From the sequence record NC_031928.1: DNA of 64,000 nt. One strand, 5' to 3'. Position 1 is the stretch's first letter, and each line of letters opens with the position of its first letter. This stretch comes from Escherichia phage WG01. Made by a program: the position numbers and the translations under genes. Shown here one piece after another: positions 3,060 through 60,263 of this stretch. The notes beneath the pieces are model-generated. The model made no database searches, was not told the origin of the DNA, and was given only the letters and a program-made list of their open reading frames with translations.

Positions 3060-4877
3060 TTACGACATCCAGGCCTTACGGAGTTGTGGGTCATTACCAA
3101 GGAGCATTTCGAACTGTTCTTTCCAATCTTCAGGTAATTGAACCACATCAAATTTAGGGTCTTGAATCATTCGACGGTATTCAGCTTTCTCAAGAGAACC
3201 TAGTCCTTTGATATACCGAATAGAATGTTTTGGTAGAGAGTCCTTAGCTTTGGTATAACTAGGAACATCATAGAACCATTCTTGTTCTTTACCAACCTGG
3301 GCAATAATTACAGGTGTTTTACAGAAACGTACTCGGCCTTGTTCGAACAATTCAGGCCATTGACTAAAGAAGGCTAGCAATGATGGATAAATCGAGCCAG
3401 TACCATCCACATCGGCATCAGTCATAATAGCAATATTACGATAGTTAGTTTTCTCTGCAGGTTCACCAATAACCAATCCAGTGATTGCACAGATATCAAA
3501 TAGTTCTTTGTTCTTCATGATATCTGTTGCTGTCATTCCCCAGGTATTCATAACCTTACCACGTAATGGGTAACCGCCTTGAAGGTCTTTATTACGGACT
3601 TCAATGAAAGGACCCATAGCGGAATCACCTTCGGTTAGGAACAGGGTTGTATCAGCATCTTTGCCGTATAAGTTAGCTTTAATATGCTTATGGACCTTGG
3701 CTTTAGAAGCTTTCTTAGCGGCTTTAGTTTCAGCGGCCTTTTCAGCTGCTAATTTACGTGCTAAAGCAGCTTCAACGATAGGCATAATCAACCCATCGAC
3801 TTTAAGAATAGCTGTGGCAATTTTCTTAGCATCAATTTGGATATGATTACGAATCTCGCCAAAAGGAGATGTTAAGCGCTCTTTAGTCTGGGAATCAAAA
3901 CGCATGTTGCTCATATCACGAATGAACATCACCATCGTAAGGCATTCTTTAACACGAGCTTTAGTTACTTCAATTCCACGGTATTTCTTTTTAATACCTG
4001 GCAGAAGGTGCTCACAGATATCATCGAATACGCATTCAACGTGGTGACCGCCATTCTTGGTGTGGATATTGTTTACATAAGTCAGTTGACGAAATCCATC
4101 CGGAGAAGGAGTGAATGCCATCGAAACATTATCAGTTTCCTGGATTACAAAGTCTTCACCAAATTGCTTAGCATACTTTTTAAAGTTGCCATCTACTTTT
4201 TTACCATTAAAAGTAAATTGAATATCAGGATAAACTACGGCCAGAGTTTGCAATCGGTCTAATGTAATATCCAGATAAATTTGTGACAGGCTATTTTCTT
4301 CGAAATGATTAAAGTCTGGGGTGAATATAACCGAAGTACCCTTACCTTTAGATTTCTTAGTAGACCAACCTTTGTTTTCCATTCCGTTTGAACAGTTAAC
4401 AGTAATCTCATTCTCACCATCAGAGGTGATGCCTGTGAACAAAACAGAGAAGATATTAGTTAAACTACTACCGACACCATTCATGCCGCCTGTCTTACGC
4501 TCAGCGTCATCTCCAAAGTTACCACCTGCCTTTGGAATAGTCCATGCAGCTACAGGACCTGGAATCTGTTCACCATTTTGGTCGGTGACCATTGCTTGTG
4601 GAATACCACGACCATTATCAGAAACTGAAACCTGGTTATTCTTAATTTGAACATCAATTTTATTTGCGAATTTAAAATTGGTACGAATAGCTTCATCGAC
4701 AGAGTTATCAATGATTTCATCAATTAATTTAACCAGTCCAGGAACATAGTTTACCTGTGTAAAATTACCAAACAGGAATCGACCGTGAGCTTCATTAGCA
4801 CTTGAGCCAATATACATCCCACTACGTTTTTTGATATGTTCAATGTCGGACAGTACTTTAATTTCATTCTTAATCAT
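3060..4877 (-). CDS. 39: DNA topoisomerase II large subunit (fused gp39/gp60-type, GyrB-like ATPase)
   Basis: 605-aa ORF with GHKL ATPase N-terminus (LVKLIDEIIDNSVDEA, SDNGRGIP) and TOPRIM-like region; length fits the uninterrupted 39+60 fusion seen in T4 relatives. Confidence 0.9.
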   Translation of the reverse strand: MIKNEIKVLSDIEHIKKRSGMYIGSSANEAHGRFLFGNFTQVNYVPGLVKLIDEIIDNSVDEAIRTNFKFANKIDVQIKNNQVSVSDNGRGIPQAMVTDQNGEQIPGPVAAWTIPKAGGNFGDDAERKTGGMNGVGSSLTNIFSVLFTGITSDGENEITVNCSNGMENKGWSTKKSKGKGTSVIFTPDFNHFEENSLSQIYLDITLDRLQTLAVVYPDIQFTFNGKKVDGNFKKYAKQFGEDFVIQETDNVSMAFTPSPDGFRQLTYVNNIHTKNGGHHVECVFDDICEHLLPGIKKKYRGIEVTKARVKECLTMVMFIRDMSNMRFDSQTKERLTSPFGEIRNHIQIDAKKIATAILKVDGLIMPIVEAALARKLAAEKAAETKAAKKASKAKVHKHIKANLYGKDADTTLFLTEGDSAMGPFIEVRNKDLQGGYPLRGKVMNTWGMTATDIMKNKELFDICAITGLVIGEPAEKTNYRNIAIMTDADVDGTGSIYPSLLAFFSQWPELFEQGRVRFCKTPVIIAQVGKEQEWFYDVPSYTKAKDSLPKHSIRYIKGLGSLEKAEYRRMIQDPKFDVVQLPEDWKEQFEMLLGNDPQLRKAWMS

Positions 4878-21951: not shown

Positions 21952-22845
21952 TTAAAGGACCACGTCCTCATAACTTGGCATTTCGTGCTCAGAATGGATG
22001 TGGGCACCGAAATAAATGAATTCAGCCAGACCAGGATGGAATACTAAACTGGGATTCTCATGATAAATGATATGAGGTCTTGATTTCAGAATCTGATAAT
22101 ATTCAACCTTACTCGGTTTGAATTTAATAATCTCTACATCAGGACGATGGTCTTCACGCTTAAATGAATCATTCGGATCGGTGATATAAAGGCGAGAACC
22201 TTCAGCCGCAGCTTGGTCTACAACTCTTTCGAATTGATAGCATTTATCTGAGATACGGAATGGATGGAAAATACCATCAATTTTAATAGGCGCTAGACCT
22301 TCAGAGTAACGCTCAATTACTGCGGGATTAATTACCTTTTGGTCTACAAAAATCTTATCAGAGGACGCACCTCGTGACACCAGGACGTCTTTCTGACATT
22401 GATTCAAGACTGTAGTATAAATCGAACGTTCAACTGAACCCACGTCGGTATCAATAAACTCATCGATGTAATAACGAGGAACTTCAGGGTCCATTGTAAT
22501 GTTAAAGTTGAATTGTACAGTCTGAGTGCCATCATAACCTGTGATATCGGTTACCAATCCTGAGCAGTCATAGTATTCGATTAACGAATCAACAACGAAC
22601 TCATTTTCAGACCAAAAATGTTTACGAGTTTCATAAGCATTTTCTTTATACCAAAGCGGTACAAAATTCAGTTCAGGAAATAATTCAATGCATTCTTTGA
22701 TATCGCTCGAATTTCTAGGATAAGCCAGATAATCACCTGGGCAAGCACGGTTTAAATGGAGTTGAAAATTACCGTCCTTAAGGACGGCATATTCACCTGT
22801 TTCGTAACTACGCATACTGAAAATAGGAACGATAAACAAACTCAT
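21952..22845 (-). CDS. orphan protein at the beta-glucosyltransferase locus; candidate hmC glycosyl(arabinosyl)transferase
   Basis: 297-aa ORF, ATGA-coupled to gene 42; occupies the position of beta-gt but does not resemble recalled T4 beta-gt; function inferred from context only. Confidence 0.6.
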   Translation of the reverse strand: MSLFIVPIFSMRSYETGEYAVLKDGNFQLHLNRACPGDYLAYPRNSSDIKECIELFPELNFVPLWYKENAYETRKHFWSENEFVVDSLIEYYDCSGLVTDITGYDGTQTVQFNFNITMDPEVPRYYIDEFIDTDVGSVERSIYTTVLNQCQKDVLVSRGASSDKIFVDQKVINPAVIERYSEGLAPIKIDGIFHPFRISDKCYQFERVVDQAAAEGSRLYITDPNDSFKREDHRPDVEIIKFKPSKVEYYQILKSRPHIIYHENPSLVFHPGLAEFIYFGAHIHSEHEMPSYEDVVL

Positions 22846-23540
22846 TTCAGGAATCCTCGAACGTAGTCAAAATCACGTTCAAATACGTGTGCACTAACCA
22901 TAGTATGGGAATACGTACCCAGACCAACACCACACTGTTCAGCAATAAAGGCCATCAGTTTACCCTGCAGATAGAAATCCAGCTGCATAACAATAGCACA
23001 GTTCTGTGAACGCATATGGGTATGTGCATAAAGACGTCCATCACGAATATAATATGTCACTGAATCAGTACATGGATATTCTAAGGATTCGTCAGAATCA
23101 AGGAGGGCTTGGTCTTGTTCTTGGAGAATTTGGAACACAACTCGTCTTGAGTTAGGCTTCTCTTTAAGCTCTTTAAGTAAGGCTGGGAGTTGGGCCACAA
23201 TTCTAGGTCCATAGAAAGTGTTGAAGTTTGCAGGCAATACGTCACTTTTCGGCTTATCAATGAACTTAGCAACATTAGGGTATTCCTTAAATGCTTCGGC
23301 GGCGTCAGTACCACCAGAAATCATAAACTTCCAGAAAGATTCGGCATAATCATAGTTGATACGATTAATACGAGGGTCGGTGAATTTATAGGTGCTTGCA
23401 TCCAGTACTTCTACCGAAGCAGAACCAATTTCATAACAACGGCCGATACGAGAATCAACTGCAAACTGTGGAGCTTCCAGGATTTCTTCGTTCATTTGCT
23501 TAAACGCGTTTTCAAAACTAACAGCGGTAATGTGTTTCAT
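22842..23540 (-). CDS. 42: dCMP hydroxymethylase (thymidylate synthase family)
   Basis: 232 aa; TS-family blocks PNSRRVVFQI, YPCTDSVTYYIRDGRL, MRSQNCAIVMQLDFY align with recalled T4 gp42 (PDSRR, CTNTVQYLIRD, MRSND). Confidence 0.75.
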   Translation of the reverse strand: MKHITAVSFENAFKQMNEEILEAPQFAVDSRIGRCYEIGSASVEVLDASTYKFTDPRINRINYDYAESFWKFMISGGTDAAEAFKEYPNVAKFIDKPKSDVLPANFNTFYGPRIVAQLPALLKELKEKPNSRRVVFQILQEQDQALLDSDESLEYPCTDSVTYYIRDGRLYAHTHMRSQNCAIVMQLDFYLQGKLMAFIAEQCGVGLGTYSHTMVSAHVFERDFDYVRGFLK

Positions 23541-24073
23541 TTATTCACCTTATTTTCAATATATTCATTCAGACGTTTTAATTCTACCATATCGACGTTA
23601 AGCAAGTTATTATGGCCGTCGTGATTTAAGATTTTAAACACGTTTTCAAAACATGTTTCATATTGCCGGATAGTTAGGTTGAACTCATCTTTGGTTAATT
23701 TAATAAGGTCATCTTCAAAGTCTTTATCCAGTGGATTACGGGTTAAAATAACCTCAATAATATTGAATTCAGATTTAAACCCTTTCCAATCTTCCAGTTC
23801 TACATAAGGGTCCATTTCACCACGAAGGAATCCAGAGTAAACAATATTACTAGGATACCCACGGTCTAAGATGTAGACAAAATTAGGGTCTAAAAACTTA
23901 TACAACGTCTCGACTAAAGCCTTGTCATTATCAGTCCCTAATGAAATGCATTTGCCATTAATCTTTTTAGGGAAATCAATAAGACGATATTTCTTATCAG
24001 ATAAAAGTGATTCAATTAAAGTAGACTTCCCGGAATTATCCGGGCCGTCGATAACAATGATTTTTGGTTTCAC
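23537..24073 (-). CDS. P-loop kinase (dNMP/thymidylate kinase-like fold)
   Basis: 178 aa; Walker A IVIDGPDNSGKST at N-terminus; first codon is GTG overlapping the upstream stop. Confidence 0.6.
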   Translation of the reverse strand: MKPKIIVIDGPDNSGKSTLIESLLSDKKYRLIDFPKKINGKCISLGTDNDKALVETLYKFLDPNFVYILDRGYPSNIVYSGFLRGEMDPYVELEDWKGFKSEFNIIEVILTRNPLDKDFEDDLIKLTKDEFNLTIRQYETCFENVFKILNHDGHNNLLNVDMVELKRLNEYIENKVNK

Positions 24074-24444
24074 GGATGATATGCCTTATAGGTTTCAAGA
24101 GTTCCTTCACGAACCATTTCTTTAAAGTGGTCAGGACGGATTGCTCGGTCATCGATGATAAAAGTATAACTCGGCTTATGTGTAAGCAGATTGTGATATT
24201 TCAATCCAATCTTTTCAAGGTTCTTAACTAATGCAGGAACTACTTCAACCAAGATTCGACCCGGGCCGCATGAAGTCATACCACGGGCAGTGAACAAGGT
24301 AATCTCGTACCCTTCATCATAAAGCTTATTAATCATGGACACCATTTCGGTGTCCGGTTTAAAGTTTTCGTAATCACGGTCATCTTGCCAGTGAGTAATG
24401 GTATTATCGATATCAAAACACAGATGCATTAAATTTTCTTCCAT
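24070..24444 (-). CDS. HAD-superfamily phosphatase
   Basis: 124 aa; HAD motif I FDIDNTIT near N-terminus; alternative start at 24429. Confidence 0.6.
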   Translation of the reverse strand: MEENLMHLCFDIDNTITHWQDDRDYENFKPDTEMVSMINKLYDEGYEITLFTARGMTSCGPGRILVEVVPALVKNLEKIGLKYHNLLTHKPSYTFIIDDRAIRPDHFKEMVREGTLETYKAYHP

Positions 24445-26102
24445 TGTTTGTGGAGTTCGGTAGAACCTGTAGGTTTATATTTTACACCAGTTTCCTGGTC
24501 AAGCAAAACCCACTTATCAGGACAACGAGTGATAATTTGAGCCGTGATAGGGTCGCGAACTTCATCAACGAATTCACCTGTGATAAGCTTACGCTTACGA
24601 GGATGCCGCTTCAGCAGCACACTCAGTTGATATAGCCCATTGTAATAAGCGCCCAGAGCTTTCAGAGGGTTATTTTTAAAGTAACCTGCCAATGCCATCC
24701 AAATAACGGCAATCCAGAGCTTGTGCTTAAATGTACACATCGGAATATCATCTAAAGGCATAACCTTTTCAATATCAACGAATACACGAGTTCCGTTACG
24801 AGTTAATCCGCCCCATAGAGGGTCAGAGTTAAATTTGTCATAACCATCGATAGAATAAAGCACCTTAGCTTCATCATAAATCGCAGGGCCTTTAGAACTA
24901 TTACCAAAATAACCACGTGGGTCGATGATTTTAATATTACCTTCGTCCGACAACATAATATTACTGTAGTGCGGGTCGCCATGAATAAGTTGGTACGGTT
25001 CTTTATGTTCAGACAGAATTTCTAAGGCGTGACGAAGAAGTTTTTCTGGGTCGCCTACCTTGAAGTCGTTAACATGGGTAATACCCTGTGGAGCAAAGCC
25101 TTCAATCAATCCGGCAATAGAAGCATTACGAATAAGGACCTTGTCCAATACTTCTTTCTTAACATCAGAATACCATTGCTCATCGGACGGATTATCGATA
25201 GTTCCACCGAACGAACGTAATGCACTAATAACCTTATAAACCATTAGGACTTTAGTTTCTTTAGACATAAACCGGTAGGCATCTGCCATGGTTCGACCAA
25301 AGATACGTTCCATTTTAATGAATTCGCCTGGAGCAAAGTCTACAATGCTAGGAACGAATTCGGAATCAATAGAATTATACCAATTGATTTCTTTAGATTG
25401 GATTTCTTTACCCAATTCGTTAGTTGGTACTTTAATAGCTAGATTCTCGGTGAACTCTAATTTATTAAATTCACGGTTAATTTCAGAATCTTCATGCGCC
25501 TTAGCCAGTTTCAGTTTGTCACCAACATCAACTACAAAGTCTAACTTACGTTCAGTCAAATGGACCATTGAATCCAGGTTGTCAGCAAGGTCTTCACCAT
25601 AATTAGAACGGTCGAAACCTGTCCAATTAGCCACCTGATACAAGCCAACTACGCCACCACCGGTACCAATTTCACGCAAGTACGGTTCTTCAAATGTAAA
25701 ACGACAGTCAGTCCCATAGGTATAACAGTAGTCGTTATCCCACTCAACTTTATGACCTTCAGGAATAATATCACACCAGTTAAACAAGACATTGTGCCCA
25801 ATGATATCTTCGGCAATGCAATCGATAGCATGAGCCGAACCATTGGCAACATCAACGTTACGAATAGTGAATTTAGGCTTATCACTATTAATCATGTTAA
25901 TGGATTTAATATAGCCTTTAACGAGGTCGTTAAATTTGCTGTGAATAACCAGAATAATTTCATCTGATTGATTACTATACAAATCATACAAATGTTTTAA
26001 TACAGTATGTTGTTTGTAGTTAACCAGTACCTTCGGGATTTCGTTGGTAATTGGATACAACCGTGAGCCAAGACCCGCGCCTAAAATAACAACCTTTTTC
26101 AT
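24429..26102 (-). CDS. bifunctional sugar-1-phosphate nucleotidyltransferase / APH-fold sugar kinase
   Basis: 557 aa from ATG 26102 (GAGGAA RBS); N-terminal NTase motif ILGAGLGSRLYPIT; C-terminal kinase motifs LIHGDPHYSNIM and IIDPRGYFG. Confidence 0.75.
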   Translation of the reverse strand: MKKVVILGAGLGSRLYPITNEIPKVLVNYKQHTVLKHLYDLYSNQSDEIILVIHSKFNDLVKGYIKSINMINSDKPKFTIRNVDVANGSAHAIDCIAEDIIGHNVLFNWCDIIPEGHKVEWDNDYCYTYGTDCRFTFEEPYLREIGTGGGVVGLYQVANWTGFDRSNYGEDLADNLDSMVHLTERKLDFVVDVGDKLKLAKAHEDSEINREFNKLEFTENLAIKVPTNELGKEIQSKEINWYNSIDSEFVPSIVDFAPGEFIKMERIFGRTMADAYRFMSKETKVLMVYKVISALRSFGGTIDNPSDEQWYSDVKKEVLDKVLIRNASIAGLIEGFAPQGITHVNDFKVGDPEKLLRHALEILSEHKEPYQLIHGDPHYSNIMLSDEGNIKIIDPRGYFGNSSKGPAIYDEAKVLYSIDGYDKFNSDPLWGGLTRNGTRVFVDIEKVMPLDDIPMCTFKHKLWIAVIWMALAGYFKNNPLKALGAYYNGLYQLSVLLKRHPRKRKLITGEFVDEVRDPITAQIITRCPDKWVLLDQETGVKYKPTGSTELHKQWKKI

Positions 26103-26162
26103 TATCTGTTCCTCAAGTGAATGTAGGTACATTATACACTATTTTTAATAAATTGGTATTGC

Positions 26163-26663
26163 TTAAATCTTATCTTTACCGATTTCAATACACTGTTCTA
26201 TTGCCGCCGGTGCTTTGGTCTTGAGCTTATCGATTTGTTTCTTATAATCACGAGCTTTACCGAAGCTCTCGGTTTCGAGCATTTCGTAATAACGAGCCTC
26301 GTGGATGGAAATCTGTAGATTGATATGGTTTACGCACATCGCATACAGTTTCTGCTTTTTGTACAAATCATCTTGACGCTTCATTTCTGCCTGGTGTTTG
26401 GCTAGTACCGCTTCACGCTTGGACTCTTGTTCACGTTGGAATTCGATTTCCCTTTGAGCATATTTTGCACAGTTATTACCACATTGATTATTGGCTCGGG
26501 TGTACACAAGTCCAGAACCTGCACGGAATTTCATTTCGCCATCGAATTGTTTCTGTTCAGCTGCGATACGAGCTTTACCAACTTCATCAGCCGAAACTGC
26601 ATCACCATATTGGACCGCGCAACCTGATAGGAGCATACTCATTGCGATAATTAACTTTTTCAT
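26163..26663 (-). CDS. putative lipoprotein with coiled-coil region
   Basis: 166 aa; signal peptide with lipobox LLSGC; GAGGA RBS. Confidence 0.55.
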   Translation of the reverse strand: MKKLIIAMSMLLSGCAVQYGDAVSADEVGKARIAAEQKQFDGEMKFRAGSGLVYTRANNQCGNNCAKYAQREIEFQREQESKREAVLAKHQAEMKRQDDLYKKQKLYAMCVNHINLQISIHEARYYEMLETESFGKARDYKKQIDKLKTKAPAAIEQCIEIGKDKI

Positions 26664-55603: not shown

Positions 55604-55882
55604 TTAGTACTTTTCTTCCGGTTGGAAAACGGAACGACACGCCCACATACTAGCTTCTTTAAGACGGTCAATTGCATTACGAATCTGGGTAATGCGTTCA
55701 TGAGCCTGGTCTAGTTCTTGTTCAGAAACCTCTTCGGTATCTAAGTTCATATAATAGGTAACATGTTCTTCTTCTAGAGCTTTAAACATCAGCCCTAACC
55801 GAATTTCGGCATCTTTAATAGCATTCACTTTACCGATTTTATCGTCGGTATGTGGTTTGTAACCCTTGATATCTTCAATCAT
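55604..55882 (-). CDS. hypothetical small helical protein (vs.3/vs.4 position)
   Basis: 92-aa ORF immediately upstream of regB. Confidence 0.45.
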   Translation of the reverse strand: MIEDIKGYKPHTDDKIGKVNAIKDAEIRLGLMFKALEEEHVTYYMNLDTEEVSEQELDQAHERITQIRNAIDRLKEASMWACRSVFQPEEKY

Positions 55883-56097: not shown

Positions 56098-56383
56098 ATT
56101 TTTTCCAATCAGAAATCATATGAATCTCTTGGTCATAAGTCAAGAGACTACGAGCAATAATACCCTTACAAGGCCCTGAGATGAACTCGAGAGTGAAGTA
56201 AGGAACCTGTTTCATTAATCGGATACTAGGAGCATGACATCTAAAACGAGAGCCCTTAAAGGGCCCTGTCATGAATACATATTCCAATGGGTAGAAATAA
56301 GCATATTCGAAATTTGCAGTAAGGTCCTCTCTTCGAACCTTACGTGAGAAATAACAGAACTCAAAAAGTTCTTCATCAGTCAT
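56090..56383 (-). CDS. hypothetical protein
   Basis: ORF-track ORF trimmed to ATG 56383. Confidence 0.4.
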   Translation of the reverse strand: MTDEELFEFCYFSRKVRREDLTANFEYAYFYPLEYVFMTGPFKGSRFRCHAPSIRLMKQVPYFTLEFISGPCKGIIARSLLTYDQEIHMISDWKKYV

Positions 56384-56910
56384 CATTGCATTCCTATCAC
56401 AAAGAACAGAGGCAAAGGCTTGTCGCCTTGGCACATAAATTTATTAATCATTACCTGGTAAGCTTCATAGAACTTATCCATCGCTGGAAGGCGCATTGGC
56501 TCTTCGATAATAATCAATAATCGAGTAACAGATAGTCCACGATACTTATGGAAATTGTCTTCATCAAGGAAACTGCGCACAGTATCATAGACAACAAAAC
56601 CAGGACCTTCGACTTGGAGATGTGGGTGTGCCTTAGAAACCTGTTTTATTACATTACAAATTTCTCGCGAGCGATGCGAAGAACTCGACATAACAATCAC
56701 ATCATTACCCTTGGAAACCCAATCAGCGGCGAACTGAGCAAGGGCACTTGTTTTACCTGTTTGGCGTCCGCCATCAAGTCGAAGAGTACCAAACTCTTGC
56801 ATTCTTGAAGCAGGTTCATACCAGGTATATTGGTCTGAGTCTAAACGTTCAATGGCGCGTTCAGCGAAGGCGTGCATTAAGGTTAGATAAATGGGAGTTA
56901 AAAATTTCAT
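56383..56910 (-). CDS. P-loop NTPase-like protein
   Basis: 175 aa from ATG 56910 (AAAGGAAATACT RBS); Walker A-like GGRQTGKTSA. Confidence 0.5.
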   Translation of the reverse strand: MKFLTPIYLTLMHAFAERAIERLDSDQYTWYEPASRMQEFGTLRLDGGRQTGKTSALAQFAADWVSKGNDVIVMSSSSHRSREICNVIKQVSKAHPHLQVEGPGFVVYDTVRSFLDEDNFHKYRGLSVTRLLIIIEEPMRLPAMDKFYEAYQVMINKFMCQGDKPLPLFFVIGMQ

Positions 56911-57059
56911 AGTATTTCCTTTGAGGGCCGTTCCTTGGCACATTAATTCGTCCCTTTCTGCATTTACCCATTACCGCACTTGGGCTCGACCTTATTACAG
57001 GTTGGCGGGAGTCCCTCACAGAATTGTGAGGTCCAGGTTGCTCCCATTTAAAATGCTAA

Positions 57060-57317
57060 TTAACGTTCTTCGTGTTTAAAACCTTTCTTAGTAAACAGCT
57101 TAACAACATCTGCTACTTTACGAAGTTGATCTGCATCAGCAACCAGTTGCTTAACCACTTTCTCGTCAGTTTCTTTAGAGCTAAAAGCGTGCTCAAGTTC
57201 GTCATCATTAGGGTCGGCCATAGAAACTTCAGTGCCGGAAGGTTTAACGTTTACAATCATATTCCAACGTTTAGAAACTAAAGTGGATTCTGTAATAAAT
57301 TCTTGGTAAGTTTTCAT
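57060..57317 (-). CDS. internal protein with capsid-targeting leader (85 aa)
   Basis: N-terminus MKTYQEFITES matches the T4 internal-protein capsid targeting sequence. Confidence 0.6.
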   Translation of the reverse strand: MKTYQEFITESTLVSKRWNMIVNVKPSGTEVSMADPNDDELEHAFSSKETDEKVVKQLVADADQLRKVADVVKLFTKKGFKHEER

Positions 57318-57325
57318 ATTAAGCC

Positions 57326-57685
57326 TTAAAGATGGTCTAGTGCCGGGTTATGAGGTTTTTCTGCTTTAGTAGTGTTTTTATGCCAATCTGATTTAGAAAC
57401 ACGGATGGCATCCGCGCCATAAGAACTCTTAAGGAGACCTTTTTTATTGTACACACTTATTGAAGTAAGAGAATCACCATTCCATGTAGCATGAATGAAG
57501 TTAGATTTAGATTTAAGTTCTTTAGCCAAGCTCTGGTTAGTGGCCATGGAAGCAAAGTCTTTACCTGTAACTTTAAAAACTTCAGATGGGTTCAGCCCTT
57601 CTTTGGCCTTAGCCAATTGTTCAGGAGACATAGCTTCGTTAATGCGCTGAGTAGATTCAGTAATAAATTGTTGGTAAGTTTTCAT
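57326..57685 (-). CDS. internal protein with capsid-targeting leader (119 aa)
   Basis: N-terminus MKTYQQFITES capsid-targeting leader. Confidence 0.6.
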   Translation of the reverse strand: MKTYQQFITESTQRINEAMSPEQLAKAKEGLNPSEVFKVTGKDFASMATNQSLAKELKSKSNFIHATWNGDSLTSISVYNKKGLLKSSYGADAIRVSKSDWHKNTTKAEKPHNPALDHL

Positions 57686-57699
57686 ATTATTCCTTAAGT

Positions 57700-57736
57700 T
57701 GATAGAAGTATTCTATCACGGATTTAATTAAGCGTA
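57700..57736 (-). promoter_or_regulatory. early promoter-like cassette (variant)
   Basis: GTTGATAGAAGTATTCTATCA core upstream of internal protein gene; -35 variant gtaaat. Confidence 0.4.
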
Positions 57737-58144
57737 AATAGCCTTGCCGTAATGTTTGTACCAGGTAGAGCGTTGTGCAATTTTTTCGTCCAAACGGGCC
57801 TGAGATATAGCAATAGAAGCTTCGTGTGGAGTATAGTCACCACGGAATTCCTGAGGAATGTCACTAATGTCCTGGACAGTAGTATCCTTGATATTAAAAC
57901 CACGTTTTAAACATTCGGCTATAAGCTCAATTTGTCGCTTACGTAAAAATTCAAGCTTATCGTAAAAGAATGTAACATGGCCTGTGCCAAGGATAAAAGT
58001 AGGACTGATTTTGAAATCACGGACACGTTTACCATTAGCAACATGCTTACGAACTGCACCGAAAACACGTGGTAATTCACGATATTCAGCCATTAAGTGT
58101 TGGTCAGCCAATTCAGATACTAAGGTAAGGTTGATACGAGTCAT
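57728..58144 (-). CDS. denV: endonuclease V (pyrimidine-dimer DNA glycosylase)
   Basis: 138 aa; essentially identical to recalled T4 DenV ([41 protein letters not shown]...). Confidence 0.95.
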
Positions 58145-58150
58145 TTTTAA

Positions 58151-58200
58151 TCTCCTGTAGTTGATAGGTCTATAGTATCATGACTACAGGAGATGTAAAC
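58151..58200 (-). promoter_or_regulatory. early promoter cassette (denV) with inverted repeat CTCCTGTAG/CTACAGGAG
   Basis: GTTGATAGGTCTATAGTATCA core, gtaaac 58195-58200; repeat arms flank the -10. Confidence 0.6.
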
Positions 58201-58224
58201 AACTTTTATCAAGTATAGGCTTTA

Positions 58225-58821
58225 TTAATTACCACGGGCAGCATTAGCAACGGCGTAAGCGTACTGAATATTAGCGTCTTTAAACGTACCTTTAGAGGTA
58301 TCTATTTCTGCCTTAAAGCCGCCTTTAGCCATAACATCGGCAAATTCTTTACGGAAAGTCATTGCATCAAGACCTTTCCATGCGGATTTATGCTTGGCAA
58401 ATTCAAGACCGGCGAAGTTGACCGCCTTAGCCAATTTATTATCAATAGTCCATTTACCTGCTTTAGGTACAAATACAGGACCTTTCTGTTTAGAGAACAG
58501 TTTTAAATTCCAGCGACGAAGGTCGCCGTCAGCTTTAACAAAAGCTGCGTCCAAGTTACTAGCAACAACATCTTGGATATGGGCAAATTTAAGTCCATCA
58601 GCTTCAATATTTAGGTCGTTACGCCAGCGAAGTCCTTCCCAGGCGAAAGCTTTAAAATCAGAAGCTTTTGTAGCCAAGTACCGTTCAATAGGAGCTGTTT
58701 TAGCGTCAAAACCGTTTCCTGGGTTGTCAACGCCGTTTCCTTTGTAAGTCCACTCATCTTTATTAATGCCTTGGACCTTTCCTACAGAAGCTTCGGCGAT
58801 AAATTCTTTATACGTTTTCAT
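58225..58821 (-). CDS. internal protein with capsid-targeting leader (198 aa; IPIII-sized)
   Basis: N-terminus MKTYKEFIAEA capsid-targeting leader; basic Ala/Lys-rich body; early and late promoter motifs upstream. Confidence 0.65.
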   Translation of the reverse strand: MKTYKEFIAEASVGKVQGINKDEWTYKGNGVDNPGNGFDAKTAPIERYLATKASDFKAFAWEGLRWRNDLNIEADGLKFAHIQDVVASNLDAAFVKADGDLRRWNLKLFSKQKGPVFVPKAGKWTIDNKLAKAVNFAGLEFAKHKSAWKGLDAMTFRKEFADVMAKGGFKAEIDTSKGTFKDANIQYAYAVANAARGN

Positions 58822-58866
58822 ACGGGTTCCTTAAAGGAAAATATTTTAATTGGTCTGTTCAAGTAA

Positions 58867-58903
58867 CTGTAGATATACTATCACAATTCTAGGAGATGTA
58901 AAC
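58867..58903 (-). promoter_or_regulatory. early promoter cassette (internal protein gene)
   Basis: ATATACTATCA core, gtaaac 58898-58903. Confidence 0.5.
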
Positions 58904-59302
58904 TTATTTATAGGTCTTCATCCAATTCTTGAACAAAGCCGCGACGTCTTTCTCTTTAACGTTCAGTTTAATGTCCAACATTTTACCACCCGCTGCTCTG
59001 GTTTGGCGAATCTTAGCAGTACCGGTTTCGCCATTCCACTCAACATAATACTGTCCAGTGTTCATTGCAATACCATCACCGTAGTCTTCATTTTTAGAAG
59101 TGGTGAATGCTAGCTTCATAGTCTTAGATACACGAGCCTGCATGCCTGTCTGAAGGGCATTACGAACGCGAATAACCTGAGGAGTGGCCTGGGTCAAGTT
59201 CTCATTCAGTTCTTCAGTGAACTCTTCAGATTCAAACATCGCCAAAAGTTCTTTAGATGCAGGAATTACATTCTCTGCGATAAATTCATTATAAGTTTTC
59301 AT
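58904..59302 (-). CDS. internal protein with capsid-targeting leader (132 aa)
   Basis: N-terminus [11 protein letters not shown] capsid-targeting leader. Confidence 0.6.
58906..58913 (-). promoter_or_regulatory. late promoter TATAAATA (internal protein gene)
   Basis: Minus-strand TATAAATA immediately upstream of early -35 for 58225..58821. Confidence 0.5.
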
Positions 59303-59783
59303 ATGCTTTCCAAGTACCTGTTTTAAATGTTGAAATCACGCGCTTAGCACGATTAGGAGTTTGTTTATACCAACGGGATTGAGCCAGGTTAACTGCCGCA
59401 TCGTTCCAACGTTTCTGTTGGAGCATACGTAAAGAGTTAGTGAACCCTGCTACGCCTGCTTCACCCATTTGGAAGACCATGTTAATTAAAGCACAACGAC
59501 GAACTTCGTCCAGTACATCATAAACAGGTTTCAATTTAGGATTACGCAGAATAGCTCTACGAGCATTTTCAACCGATCGGTTAAAGAGTTGTTCAGCTTC
59601 AGCCATAGTAATACGACCATTACAAACTCGACCCATAAGCTTATCAAGTTCAGCACGAGCAACATCTTTAGAAGGGTTCTTAGTAATCAATTGGCCAATG
59701 CCAATAGTCCAATAACCTTCAGTGTCTTTATAAAGATTTAAATCAAGACCTTCGTCTTGACGTAACATATCAAAAATATCCAT
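59289..59783 (-). CDS. e: lysozyme (endolysin, T4 lysozyme family)
   Basis: 164 aa; catalytic region [11 protein letters not shown] and [32 protein letters not shown] nearly identical to recalled T4 lysozyme. Confidence 0.95.
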
Positions 59784-59787
59784 AATA

Positions 59788-59813
59788 CCTCCTGAGTATA
59801 GGAGGTATTTATA
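59788..59813 (-). promoter_or_regulatory. gene e late promoter TATAAATA embedded in SD-sequestering hairpin
   Basis: Minus-strand TATAAATA CCTCCT ATACTC AGGAGG TATT ATG; same architecture as described for T4 gene e. Confidence 0.7.
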
Positions 59814-60263
59814 TCAAAAGAGTGAATCCAAAACCTTAAACATCGACGGGCCCATGACATATTCCCATTGTGGCCGTTTAATCAAGGCAAAAGCATCGAA
59901 TTCAGGAATAGTACGACCATCAGGGAACGTATGGTAAGCCGTACATTTGCAATCCTTGAACTGCTCGTGTTCCACAGGAACTGTATATAAGAACAGATGT
60001 AGATTCTTATTGCTTGAATATTTGAACTCACCTAGGTCTTTCAGGAACGCAGGATCGTATGCTGTGAATCCAATCTCTTCTTCGGTTTCGCGCATTGCCG
60101 CTTGAATGGGCTCTTCGCCTGGTTCGACATGACCCTTAGGAATGTCCCATTTATGACGCATATTCTCTGGATTACGAGAGCCTGTTACACGGCCCATGAC
60201 CAGTTCTTTATCAACGGTCATGAATAAAATACCGGCAGATAGTTCTTTCACTTTCTTACTCAT
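59814..60263 (-). CDS. nudE: Nudix hydrolase
   Basis: 150 aa from ATG 60263; Nudix box GHVEPGEEPIQAAMRETEEEIG; position next to e. Confidence 0.75.
   Translation of the reverse strand: MSKKVKELSAGILFMTVDKELVMGRVTGSRNPENMRHKWDIPKGHVEPGEEPIQAAMRETEEEIGFTAYDPAFLKDLGEFKYSSNKNLHLFLYTVPVEHEQFKDCKCTAYHTFPDGRTIPEFDAFALIKRPQWEYVMGPSMFKVLDSLF

Follow-up and report, generated by a model that had tools for sequence, protein, structure and literature searches.

Polymorphic internal protein (IP) loci were reportedly described in T-even phages by Repoila et al. in 1994. More than 30 IP variants were counted by Comeau et al. (2007), as cited in PMC2839356, and IP loci are bounded by early-promoter/stem-loop elements that resemble the PeSL (promoter-early stem-loop) elements of other cassettes (Arbiol et al. 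2010, PMC2839356). The T4 leader sends the proteins that carry it to the core of the prohead (Mullaney & Black 1996, as summarized in PMC13326640; PMC3012670), and it is enough on its own for packaging, foreign proteins included (PMC3012670). Each of the T4 proteins Ip1, Ip2, and Ip3 inhibits its own GmrSD variant among the type IV restriction enzymes, without cross-protection, and the targets of Ip2 and Ip3 emerged only after O-antigen barriers had been removed (Silas 2025, PMC12373910). Silas et al. liken IP loci to anti-defense hotspots and expect all proteins of both IP loci to target GmrSD variants, but GmrSD inhibition is not an established property of every IP, because ip4-10 inhibited none of the eight active GmrSD systems tested, in a panel far narrower than GmrSD diversity (PMC12373910).

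The window, which is the whole 64-kb stretch of DNA analyzed here, contains the e-denV-vs.8 IP hyperplastic locus of a T-even-related phage similar to JS98 (Dhakavirus), syntenic with T4 e-ipIII-ipII-denV-vs.8, and its four leader-bearing proteins are each identical in sequence to proteins of phage WG01. Its features, with one nearby counter-defense gene, are as follows.

59289..59783, minus strand: lysozyme gene e, the conserved flank on the right (Pfam Phage_lysozyme, E 1e-12)
58904..59302, minus strand: 132-aa leader-bearing protein (family F3); leader codons 1-10 at 59273..59302
58225..58821, minus strand: IpIII ortholog, 198 aa, start MKTYKEFIAEA; leader codons 1-10 at 58792..58821
57728..58144, minus strand: denV, endonuclease V (Pfam PF03013 Pyr_excise, E 1e-14; phrog_1183, E 1e-62)
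57326..57685, minus strand: 119-aa leader-bearing protein (family F7), start MKTYQQFITES; leader codons 1-10 at 57656..57685, the recombination junction
57060..57317, minus strand: 85-aa leader-bearing protein (family F11), start MKTYQEFITES; leader codons 1-10 at 57288..57317
56383..56943, minus strand: vs.8 homolog, the conserved left flank (phrog_1488, E 7e-69; synteny with JS10 and T4)
55604-55882: vs.4/Acb2 anti-CBASS sponge, not restriction directed

The order between e and vs.8 is 132-IpIII-denV-119-85, a combination known from WG01. The first 14 nt of the 132-aa gene lie within the 3' end of gene e, and denV, the conserved anchor gene within the array, has the IpIII and 132-aa genes on one side and the 119-aa and 85-aa genes on the other. 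All four leader-bearing ORFs sit in this locus, which is one of two IP hyperplastic loci (the other adjoins 57B). The ipII gene is absent from the window and is present in the closest relative, ABTNLS3.

An earlier note on this DNA had claimed that four ORFs with the T4 capsid-targeting leader flank denV, and a scan of the six-frame translation of the whole window with the pattern M-K-T-[YF]-x-x-[FLIV]-[IVL]-x-[ED] bears this out. The pattern matches four times, each time at one of the four ORF starts and at no other place in the window, with a chance expectation of 0.0027 matches per window and no match in 300 shuffles. The leader MKTYxxFIxE is carried by exactly four ORFs, all on the minus strand, and all four conform to the capsid-targeting consensus MKT[YF]xEF[IL]xE. 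Each is identical to T4 IpII and IpIII, both of which start with MKTYQEFIAEA, at 8 to 10 of the first 11 residues; the 19-residue leader of T4 IpI, MKTFKEFTSTTTPVSTITE, is more divergent. In T4, the prohead protease gp21 follows the motif rule [LI]-x-E. The predicted motif is present in all four leaders at residues 8 to 10, with the sites reading ITE|S, ITE|S, IAE|A, and IAE|N. In the 132-aa protein, the mature form could begin at Asn35 rather than Asn11, following an invariant L-N-E.

The bodies behind the leaders had been called unrelated to each other, which the comparisons uphold: with the leaders removed, BLASTP of body against body gave nothing better than an E value of 0.03, and profile-profile hhalign between the bodies and against the T4 internal proteins gave probabilities of at most 1.7% throughout. 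The 132-, 119-, and 85-aa bodies show no similarity to T4 IpI, IpII, or IpIII by BLASTP or hhalign, whereas the 198-aa protein shares 87% identity with T4 IpIII across 188 residues (E 2e-120) and matches phrog_5341, "internal virion protein" (E 4e-115), which identifies it by sequence as an IpIII ortholog rather than a novel body. This family corresponds to PF26861 (Phage_T4_IpIII) and phrog_5341, and the Pfam set searched was one without PF26861. The protein is annotated as "internal virion protein" in WG01 (exact match). Like T4 IpIII (Ip3, which inhibits ECOR17 GmrS1/GmrSD2), it has the leader and a locus beside gene e; compared with the 193-aa T4 protein, it has a short insertion near the mature N terminus. 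The predicted mature forms of the IpIII ortholog (188 aa, pI 9.5), the 119-aa protein (109 aa, pI 9.5), and the 132-aa protein (pI 8.8) are basic and lysine rich. The predicted mature 85-aa product (75 aa from Ser11, pI 6.1) is near neutral, unlike the classical basic IPs.

The three unnamed proteins differ in how widely they occur. The 132-aa protein matches phrog_15461, "unknown function," and is found in 48 phage records, among them those of Dhakavirus, of Klebsiella phages such as Marfa (Marfavirus), and of phages of Erwinia and Serratia, for example, Cronus (Risoevirus); all homolog records listed say "hypothetical." The 119-aa protein matches phrog_3966, "unknown function," and has homologs in 88 phage records, 11 of them close and 77 at about 32% identity; those of the latter that were checked belong to Mosigvirus, for example, RB69ORF123c, and no record inspected annotates it as an internal protein. 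The 85-aa protein is WG01 gp114 (exact match), annotated as "hypothetical," and, of 50,697 phage records, only 5 contain it, in each case without a single difference. An exhaustive HMMER search of 1.84 billion representatives yielded only one relative at 96% and one at 56%, and the 85-aa protein is, as judged from these searches, a near-orphan. The 56% relative adjoins a different IP of 134 aa. An 87-aa family (F10) with the same MKTYQEFITESA start was rejected as a relative, the bodies being unrelated. In the records inspected, the 132-, 119-, and 85-aa proteins are labeled "hypothetical," with one record mislabeling the 119-aa protein as an ADP-ribosylase.

Pfam searches gave no match for the three unnamed bodies. 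A match of the 119-aa protein to 9hnh_A (E 4e-4) was rejected, as it covers 28 residues and aligns to an apparently internally repeated chain. A match of the 132-aa protein to M.HhaI residues 189 to 275 (E 0.01) was gone when a 15-sequence family profile was used, and the flagellin match that replaced it (E 0.019) is at chance level. Matches of the unnamed bodies to PADLOC JukA (E 0.009) and NCBIfam fmt (E 0.05) fell far below the cutoffs and were likewise set aside. Structure prediction, proposed in the earlier note as one of its checks, was run on the 85- and 132-aa proteins and yielded neither a fold assignment nor a lead. The AlphaFold2 model of the 132-aa protein, built with 15 sequences, reached a pLDDT of 54, too poor for a fold search. 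For the 85-aa protein, the best model (pLDDT 82, pTM 0.70; the other four models, 42 to 47) shows a sheet of four strands and two helices, with one more strand at the end. With this model, Foldseek gave no match in the PDB with an E value below 1 and did not convincingly retrieve IpI*, and a search of BFVD returned only the identical WG01 protein.

The genes of the array are separated by predicted promoters and stem-loops.

58875..58912, minus strand: late promoter TATAAATA (58905-58912) with an early-type promoter immediately after it (58875-58902), both upstream of IpIII; consensus matches
58145..58200, minus strand: predicted early-type promoter and strong stem-loop at denV, TTTACA-16-TACTAT
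57710..57738, minus strand: predicted early-type promoter upstream of the 119-aa/85-aa pair, TTTACG-17-TAGAAT with TG
57007..57045, minus strand: stem-loop just 3' of the 85-aa stop codon, the left boundary of the variable cassette

The three early-type promoters, all consensus matches, have an extended -10 element. The element at 58145..58200 is a linker of the PeSL type; its fold has a predicted energy of -20.7 kcal/mol (z -6.05), none of 200 shuffles was as stable, and its stem-loop is predicted to pair with the denV Shine-Dalgarno sequence. The 132-aa gene and the promoter pair upstream of IpIII overlap at the stop codon of the former. The 132-aa protein ends in MKTYK, encoded by codons that overlap the late promoter TATAAATA; this MKTYK was considered as a scar of leader recombination and rejected, since the family keeps KTYK, KTHK, or KVHK there. 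No canonical late promoter was seen directly upstream of the 119-aa/85-aa pair, and T4 ipII and ipIII likewise lack one.

The positions at which relatives diverge from the window coincide with leader codons 10 and 11, the promoter/stem-loop linkers, and the 3' hairpin. At the position of the 119-aa protein, QL01 and JS98 have another body (F2, 99 aa); their DNA equals that of the window through the promoter, the Shine-Dalgarno sequence, and the leader codons and diverges right after codon 10 or 11, with the promoter region at 57710..57738 conserved in relatives that have a different downstream body. Cassette boundaries in relatives fall at 58147, 58200, and 58211, and the 132-aa and IpIII cassettes are in swapped order in JS98 and JS10, at 58891-58904. 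QL01, JS10, and VR5 cease to be homologous to the window at 57005-57045, where the terminal hairpin lies within a 78-nt fold (-21.1 kcal/mol, z -1.96). These comparisons show that the array is assembled and reshuffled by homologous recombination at the 30 nt of the leader, the promoter/stem-loop linkers, and the terminal hairpin, which is why close relatives differ in the combinations and orders of their cassettes.

Across the 83 denV-anchored loci scanned, 34 contain leader-bearing ORFs, 82 in number and with at least 18 body families, and the window itself was added to these as the 35th source. The 10 closest loci have nine architectures with two to five IP genes each; in a metagenomic relative the 119-aa/85-aa pair is all there is, and in ABTNLS3 the number of IP genes is five. 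The 119-aa gene and the 85-aa gene do not form an obligatory pair, as close homologs of the former are in 11 records and the latter is in 5. In other lineages, IpIII lies to the left or to the right of denV, and the presence of IPs varies even between near-identical phages. The bodies are not invariant homologs of T4 IPII and IPIII, the outcome that the earlier note had named as one that would refute its reading, because only one is IpIII and the close loci vary as described. Leader-tagged IPs, hypervariable loci, and an anti-restriction role are already described, and the locus is no new phenomenon. As in the polymorphic T-even IP loci, unrelated bodies stand behind one leader, within the same promoter/stem-loop bounds and with the same shuffling; the window differs in no kind and only contributes a combination known from WG01. 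Anti-CRISPR and anti-defense hotspots share the small, unrelated, fast-turnover inhibitor genes at one conserved position, but the IP products would be made in advance, packaged, and coinjected by means of a common N-terminal tag rather than expressed early.

We consider it very probable that the locus encodes four leader-tagged small internal proteins that are packaged, injected, and most probably block host nucleases. By analogy with T4, the leader would carry each protein into the prohead scaffolding core, gp21 would cut it off after Glu10 at the I-x-E motif, and the mature protein would remain in the head with the DNA and enter the host at infection. There it would act ahead of phage gene expression; most probably it would bind a nuclease of the host directed at the modified phage DNA and so block it. 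The near-neutral charge of the 85-aa product and the lack of a canonical late promoter directly upstream of the 119-aa/85-aa pair weigh against this reading. The earlier proposal of a packaged, injected, and likely anti-defense array is in line with the literature on the T-even locus and on GmrSD inhibition (PMC12373910). Homology to a proven GmrSD inhibitor is limited to the IpIII ortholog, which by analogy would have the activity of T4 Ip3, inhibiting a two-gene GmrS/GmrSD type IV restriction system. For the 85-, 119-, and 132-aa proteins, packaging, processing, and injection are suggested by the leader and the locus; the literature search found no Dhakavirus virion proteome. These three resemble T4 IpI* and IpII (which inhibit GmrSD-CT596 and GmrSD-ECOR21/BrxU, respectively) in small size, in the leader and gp21 site, and in the location of their genes in an IP hyperplastic locus with presence/absence variation, but their bodies have no sequence or profile similarity to them. 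They may work like Ip1, Ip2, and Ip3 without being assignable as members of those families, each body on the common delivery tag probably having its own narrow target.

The phage carries an RB69-type cytosine arabinosylation cluster, and its cytosines are probably arabinosylated rather than glucosylated, whereas the DNA of the phage of T4 IpIII is glucosyl-hmC DNA; the targets of the T4 IPs therefore may not transfer directly, and the leader proteins may act against nucleases directed at arabinosylated DNA. Where the genus was checked, the unnamed bodies occur only in Dhakavirus, Mosigvirus, Marfavirus, and Risoevirus, the first three being lineages with reported or predicted arabinosylated 5-hydroxycytosine DNA. 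We suggest only tentatively that the unnamed bodies are injected inhibitors of modification-dependent nucleases that recognize arabinosyl-cytosine DNA, or of a nonrestriction defense, and that the 85-aa protein is a specificity of recent origin whose fold lacks any solved relative.

The three unnamed proteins could instead be injected effectors against targets other than GmrSD, such as other nucleases, abortive infection, host functions, or competing phages. None of their bodies is homologous to Ip1, Ip2, or Ip3, the failure of ip4-10 against the eight active GmrSD systems points the same way, and the neighborhood also holds the vs.4/Acb2 anti-CBASS sponge. However, the three characterized IPs all act on one enzyme family, the GmrSD family member BrxU cleaves arabinosylated DNA too (PMC13390438), and the breadth of GmrSD diversity beyond the tested panel leaves room for targets within it; we regard targets outside GmrSD as a possibility with less than even prospects. 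It is improbable that the four proteins are packaged as structural or charge-neutralizing components of condensed DNA, with no specific anti-defense target except that of IpIII. The basic, lysine-rich character of three of the four mature forms (pI 8.8 to 9.5) fits such a role, as do the lysines of T4 internal proteins, which contact DNA phosphates with about 1,000 copies embedded in the DNA (PMC3012670), Ip3 seen inside the T4 capsid bound to the capsid wall and residual DNA (bioRxiv 2026.03.06.709160), and the lack of reproducible inhibition of the GmrSD panel by ip4-10 (PMC12373910). A structural role leaves unexplained, however, the many unrelated body families, the presence/absence variation among near-identical phages, and the near-neutral 85-aa member, and the three T4 IPs that were long considered structural proved to be specific restriction inhibitors.

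It is very improbable that the common 5' end is conserved mainly as DNA, for recombination or translation initiation, and that some of the ORFs are not packaged. The leader DNAs of the adjacent 85- and 119-aa genes are identical at 33 of 36 nt, synonymous positions included, and recombination junctions lie within the leader. The 82 ORFs nevertheless keep the leader as protein (M-K-T-Y/F..F-I/L-x-E and the Glu10 site) despite synonymous and conservative changes, and the leader by itself suffices for packaging in T4 (PMC3012670).

The reading of the locus as an array of packaged and injected proteins, most probably directed at host nucleases, has a practical value. The three small unnamed proteins, each behind a leader of proven delivery, form a candidate list for target finding, in a lineage with a recently recognized DNA modification, arabinosyl-5-hydroxycytosine.

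The window carries four ORFs that begin with the 10-residue capsid-targeting leader (MKTYxxFIxE) of T4-type internal proteins (IPs) and flank denV at 57060-59302, as the earlier note had described. The genes of this locus are as follows.

56383-56943, minus strand: vs.8 homologue (186 aa; phrog_1488, unknown function), on one flank of the IP set
57060-57317, minus strand: 85-aa ORF, leader MKTYQEFITES
57326-57685, minus strand: 119-aa ORF, leader MKTYQQFITES
57728-58144, between the 119-aa and 198-aa ORFs: denV (Pfam Pyr_excise, E 1e-14)
58225-58821, minus strand: 198-aa ORF, leader MKTYKEFIAEA
58904-59302, minus strand: 132-aa ORF, leader-bearing
59289-59783: lysozyme gene e, on the other flank

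Translated in all six frames, the window has four matches to the pattern M-K-T-[YF]-x-x-[FLIV]-[IVL]-x-[ED], all at the starts of these ORFs, with 0.0027 expected by chance per window and none in 300 shuffles. T4 IpII and IpIII begin with MKTYQEFIAEA, and the T4 IpI leader is longer and looser. All four proteins have I-x-E, the motif of the T4 prohead protease, at residues 8 to 10. The T4 counterpart locus is e-ipIII-ipII-denV-vs.8, and Megablast assigns the region to Dhakavirus, the Tevenvirinae group that includes JS98, JS10, and QL01. The WG01 (Dhakavirus wg01) entries of the four IPs (AND75786, AND75787, AND75789, and AND75790) have the exact sequences and the window's gene order, and the gap in the numbering is consistent with denV between the IP genes. 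Only the 198-aa protein is named in WG01 ("internal virion protein"), and the other three are "hypothetical protein" across sources, bar one record for the 119-aa protein. A 98%-identical homologue of the latter in Escherichia phage vB_EcoM_ESCO10 (OM386655.1, 45333-45659) is annotated "RNA polymerase ADP-ribosylase", which looks like an annotation error. The vs.8 homologue shows weak, sub-threshold P-loop NTPase matches (AAA_14, AAA_30, and nSTAND_NTPase5; E 0.01-0.03) around a GKT motif.

The regions following the leaders (bodies) had been considered unrelated to each other, and this holds because, apart from one pair, BLASTP with leaders removed found nothing better than E 0.01 among the four bodies and T4 IpI, IpII, and IpIII, and hhalign between family profiles gave probabilities of at most 1.7%. 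Novelty does not extend to the 198-aa body, which shares 87% identity with T4 IpIII (E 2e-120), matches phrog_5341 "internal virion protein", and is by sequence plain IpIII. The 132-aa protein (phrog_15461, unknown function) is present in 48 of 50,697 phage records, among them those of Dhakavirus, of phages of Klebsiella (e.g., Marfa, Marfavirus), and of phages of Erwinia and Serratia (e.g., Cronus, Risoevirus). The 119-aa protein (phrog_3966, unknown function) has homologues in 88 phage records, 11 of them close and 77 at about 32% identity; the distant ones that were checked belong to Mosigvirus and include RB69ORF123c. The 85-aa protein is almost an orphan: only five phage records contain it, at 100% identity in all, and it forms one cluster among 5.8 billion proteins; an exhaustive HMMER search of 1.84 billion representatives found only two relatives, at 96% and 56%, the latter leader-bearing and at the same locus on a different T4-like contig. 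The predicted mature pI is 9.5 for the 119- and 198-aa proteins, 8.8 for the 132-aa protein, and 6.1 for the 85-aa protein. Sequence searches for function in Pfam, NCBIfam, PADLOC, and the PDB gave chance-level matches only; the Pfam set used gave no family even for the IpIII orthologue, so its nulls are uninformative for T4-specific families. Precomputed annotations list PF26861 Phage_T4_IpIII, as well as PF26834 and PF26896 on neighbouring genes.

In the 132-aa family alignment, residues 11-31 are acidic, variable, and missing from distant members, and an invariant L-N-E-N follows; the protein may undergo another maturation cleavage, after Glu34. Structure prediction, which the earlier note had proposed for each body, gave a poor AlphaFold model here (pLDDT 54 overall, below 50 at residues 1-32). 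The C terminus of this protein (...NWMKTYK*, 58904-58921, minus strand) resembles the leader start MKTYK. Its reading as a recombination scar was rejected, because the family keeps KTYK, KTHK, or KVHK and the codons overlap the late promoter TATAAATA; the likeness is taken to be coincidence or a promoter constraint.

The comparison covered the window, 79 denV-anchored viral loci, and four annotated regions from T4 and Dhakavirus. A total of 82 leader-bearing ORFs were found in 34 loci and the window, and by BLAST their bodies form at least 18 families with no connection to one another. Gene order varies even where denV is 96-99% identical.

Gene orders at the denV locus (numbers are protein lengths; F2 is a 99-aa body family, annotated ip7 in VR5)
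Window: e-132-IpIII-denV-119-85
ABTNLS3: e-132-IpIII-IpII-denV-119-85
QL01: e-132-IpIII-denV-F2
JS98, JS10: e-IpIII-132-denV-F2
IME281: e-132-denV-F2
vB_EcoM_005: e-IpIII-IpII-denV-F2
IME341: e-IpII-denV-F2
VR5: e-IpIII-F2-denV
Metagenomic contig: e-denV-119-85

IpIII lies on the opposite side of denV in Mosigvirus- and Marfavirus-like loci. Thus, of the earlier note's alternative, that the bodies are homologous to T4 IpII or IpIII without variation among relatives, only the IpIII identity of the 198-aa body is borne out; the other three are unrelated and the gene orders vary. DUF7412 (PF24183) is also a leader-bearing IP family (158 aa, MKTYNEFLTET...), found at locus L087 (with L026 and L020), and the L087 contig carries this IP plus a further unnamed 134-aa IP (MKTYQEFIAEAA...) at 1743-2219 and 3588-3992. 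IP body families outnumber the 18 counted.

The breakpoints are sharp and lie at leader codons and linkers. At the 119-aa gene, the window and QL01/JS98 are identical over the promoter, Shine-Dalgarno sequence, and first 10 codons and diverge completely from codon 11. The left cassette boundary is a hairpin (57007-57045) directly after the 85-aa stop codon, and the order swap of the 132-aa and IpIII cassettes occurs at the promoter block 58891-58904. The 85-aa gene and its neighbour, the 119-aa gene, share 33 of 36 nt of leader DNA. Promoters are predicted here as consensus matches. Three, which precede the 119-aa gene, denV, and IpIII, are early type with an extended -10, and that of denV sits within a strong stem-loop (-20.7 kcal/mol, z -6.05) in which the Shine-Dalgarno sequence is paired. 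Perfect late promoters (TATAAATA) precede e and IpIII, the latter overlapping the stop codon of the 132-aa gene; the 119/85 pair has none immediately in front of it, as is also the case for T4 ipII and ipIII. Upstream of e (59784-59815, minus strand), the late promoter TATAAATA is followed at once by a 10-bp hairpin (-13.4 kcal/mol, z -4.1) in which the Shine-Dalgarno sequence is sequestered, the known T4 gene e arrangement, which allows translation from late transcripts only. The start of the 132-aa gene overlaps the 3' end of e by 14 nt (59289-59302) with no promoter between them, so cotranscription and translational coupling of the gene with e are probable. The JS98 and JS10 copies of this gene lie between IpIII and denV, not at e.

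The window also contains a DNA modification cluster.

21952-26663, minus strand: modification cluster, between uvsX and the DNA polymerase gene
22842-23540, within the cluster: thymidylate-synthase-family enzyme
24429-26132, within the cluster: 567-aa NTP-transferase/APH-kinase fusion

QL01 annotations alongside these two genes include thymidylate kinase and phosphoheptose isomerase. The cluster is of the cytosine-arabinosylation type found in RB69 and holds no beta-glucosyltransferase; the virion DNA therefore probably contains arabinosyl-5-hydroxycytosine. T-even glucosyltransferases are absent from JS98-type phages (PMC2993671), and arabosylated 5-hydroxycytosine has been predicted for Dhakaviruses, Mosigviruses, and Marfaviruses (a 2026 paper, PMC13326640). 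BrxU, a GmrSD-family enzyme, cleaves arabinosylated DNA (PMC13390438). Among genus-checked matches, the 119- and 132-aa families were limited to these arabinosylation lineages and Risoevirus, which is only suggestive because part of the matches were classified to genus. In addition, the 92-aa vs.4 homologue (55604-55882, minus strand) matches Pfam PF24729 Acb2_Tad1_hairpin (E 4e-15), identifying it as Acb2, an anti-CBASS cyclic-nucleotide sponge. The distance to the IP array is about 1.2 kb, so the regB-to-e stretch forms an anti-defence neighbourhood.

The earlier note's reading of the array as injected anti-defence proteins agrees with the T4 IP literature, in which the phenomenon is already well described. 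The capsid-targeting sequence brings even foreign proteins into T4 heads, and IPs are diverse defence proteins with only that sequence in common (PMC3012670). Arbiol et al. (PMC2839356) credit Repoila et al. (1994) with early-promoter/stem-loop elements at both variable IP loci and count more than 30 IP variants known by 2007. Silas et al. (2025; PMC12373910) found that T4 Ip1, Ip2, and Ip3 each block one GmrSD type IV restriction enzyme, a different one in each case and with no cross-protection, and that ip4-10 blocked none of the tested systems; they termed the IP loci a hotspot and expected all products to target GmrSD variants. A 2026 preprint (bioRxiv 2026.03.06.709160) shows Ip3 bound to the inside of the capsid wall once the DNA has been ejected. 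From this literature, the best explanation is the known one: premade IPs would enter the head via the leader, be processed by gp21, and be coinjected to disarm host nucleases, and recombination at leader codons and linker elements reshuffles the collection. For the window itself, the leader, cleavage motif, locus, IpIII orthology, body diversity, and breakpoints are established by sequence and comparison. The genome is already deposited, and the 85-, 119-, and 132-aa proteins are unannotated proteins of a known kind, whose packaging, processing, injection, and targets we infer. They are candidate inhibitors of nucleases that attack arabinosylated DNA, and this is the main interest of the locus.
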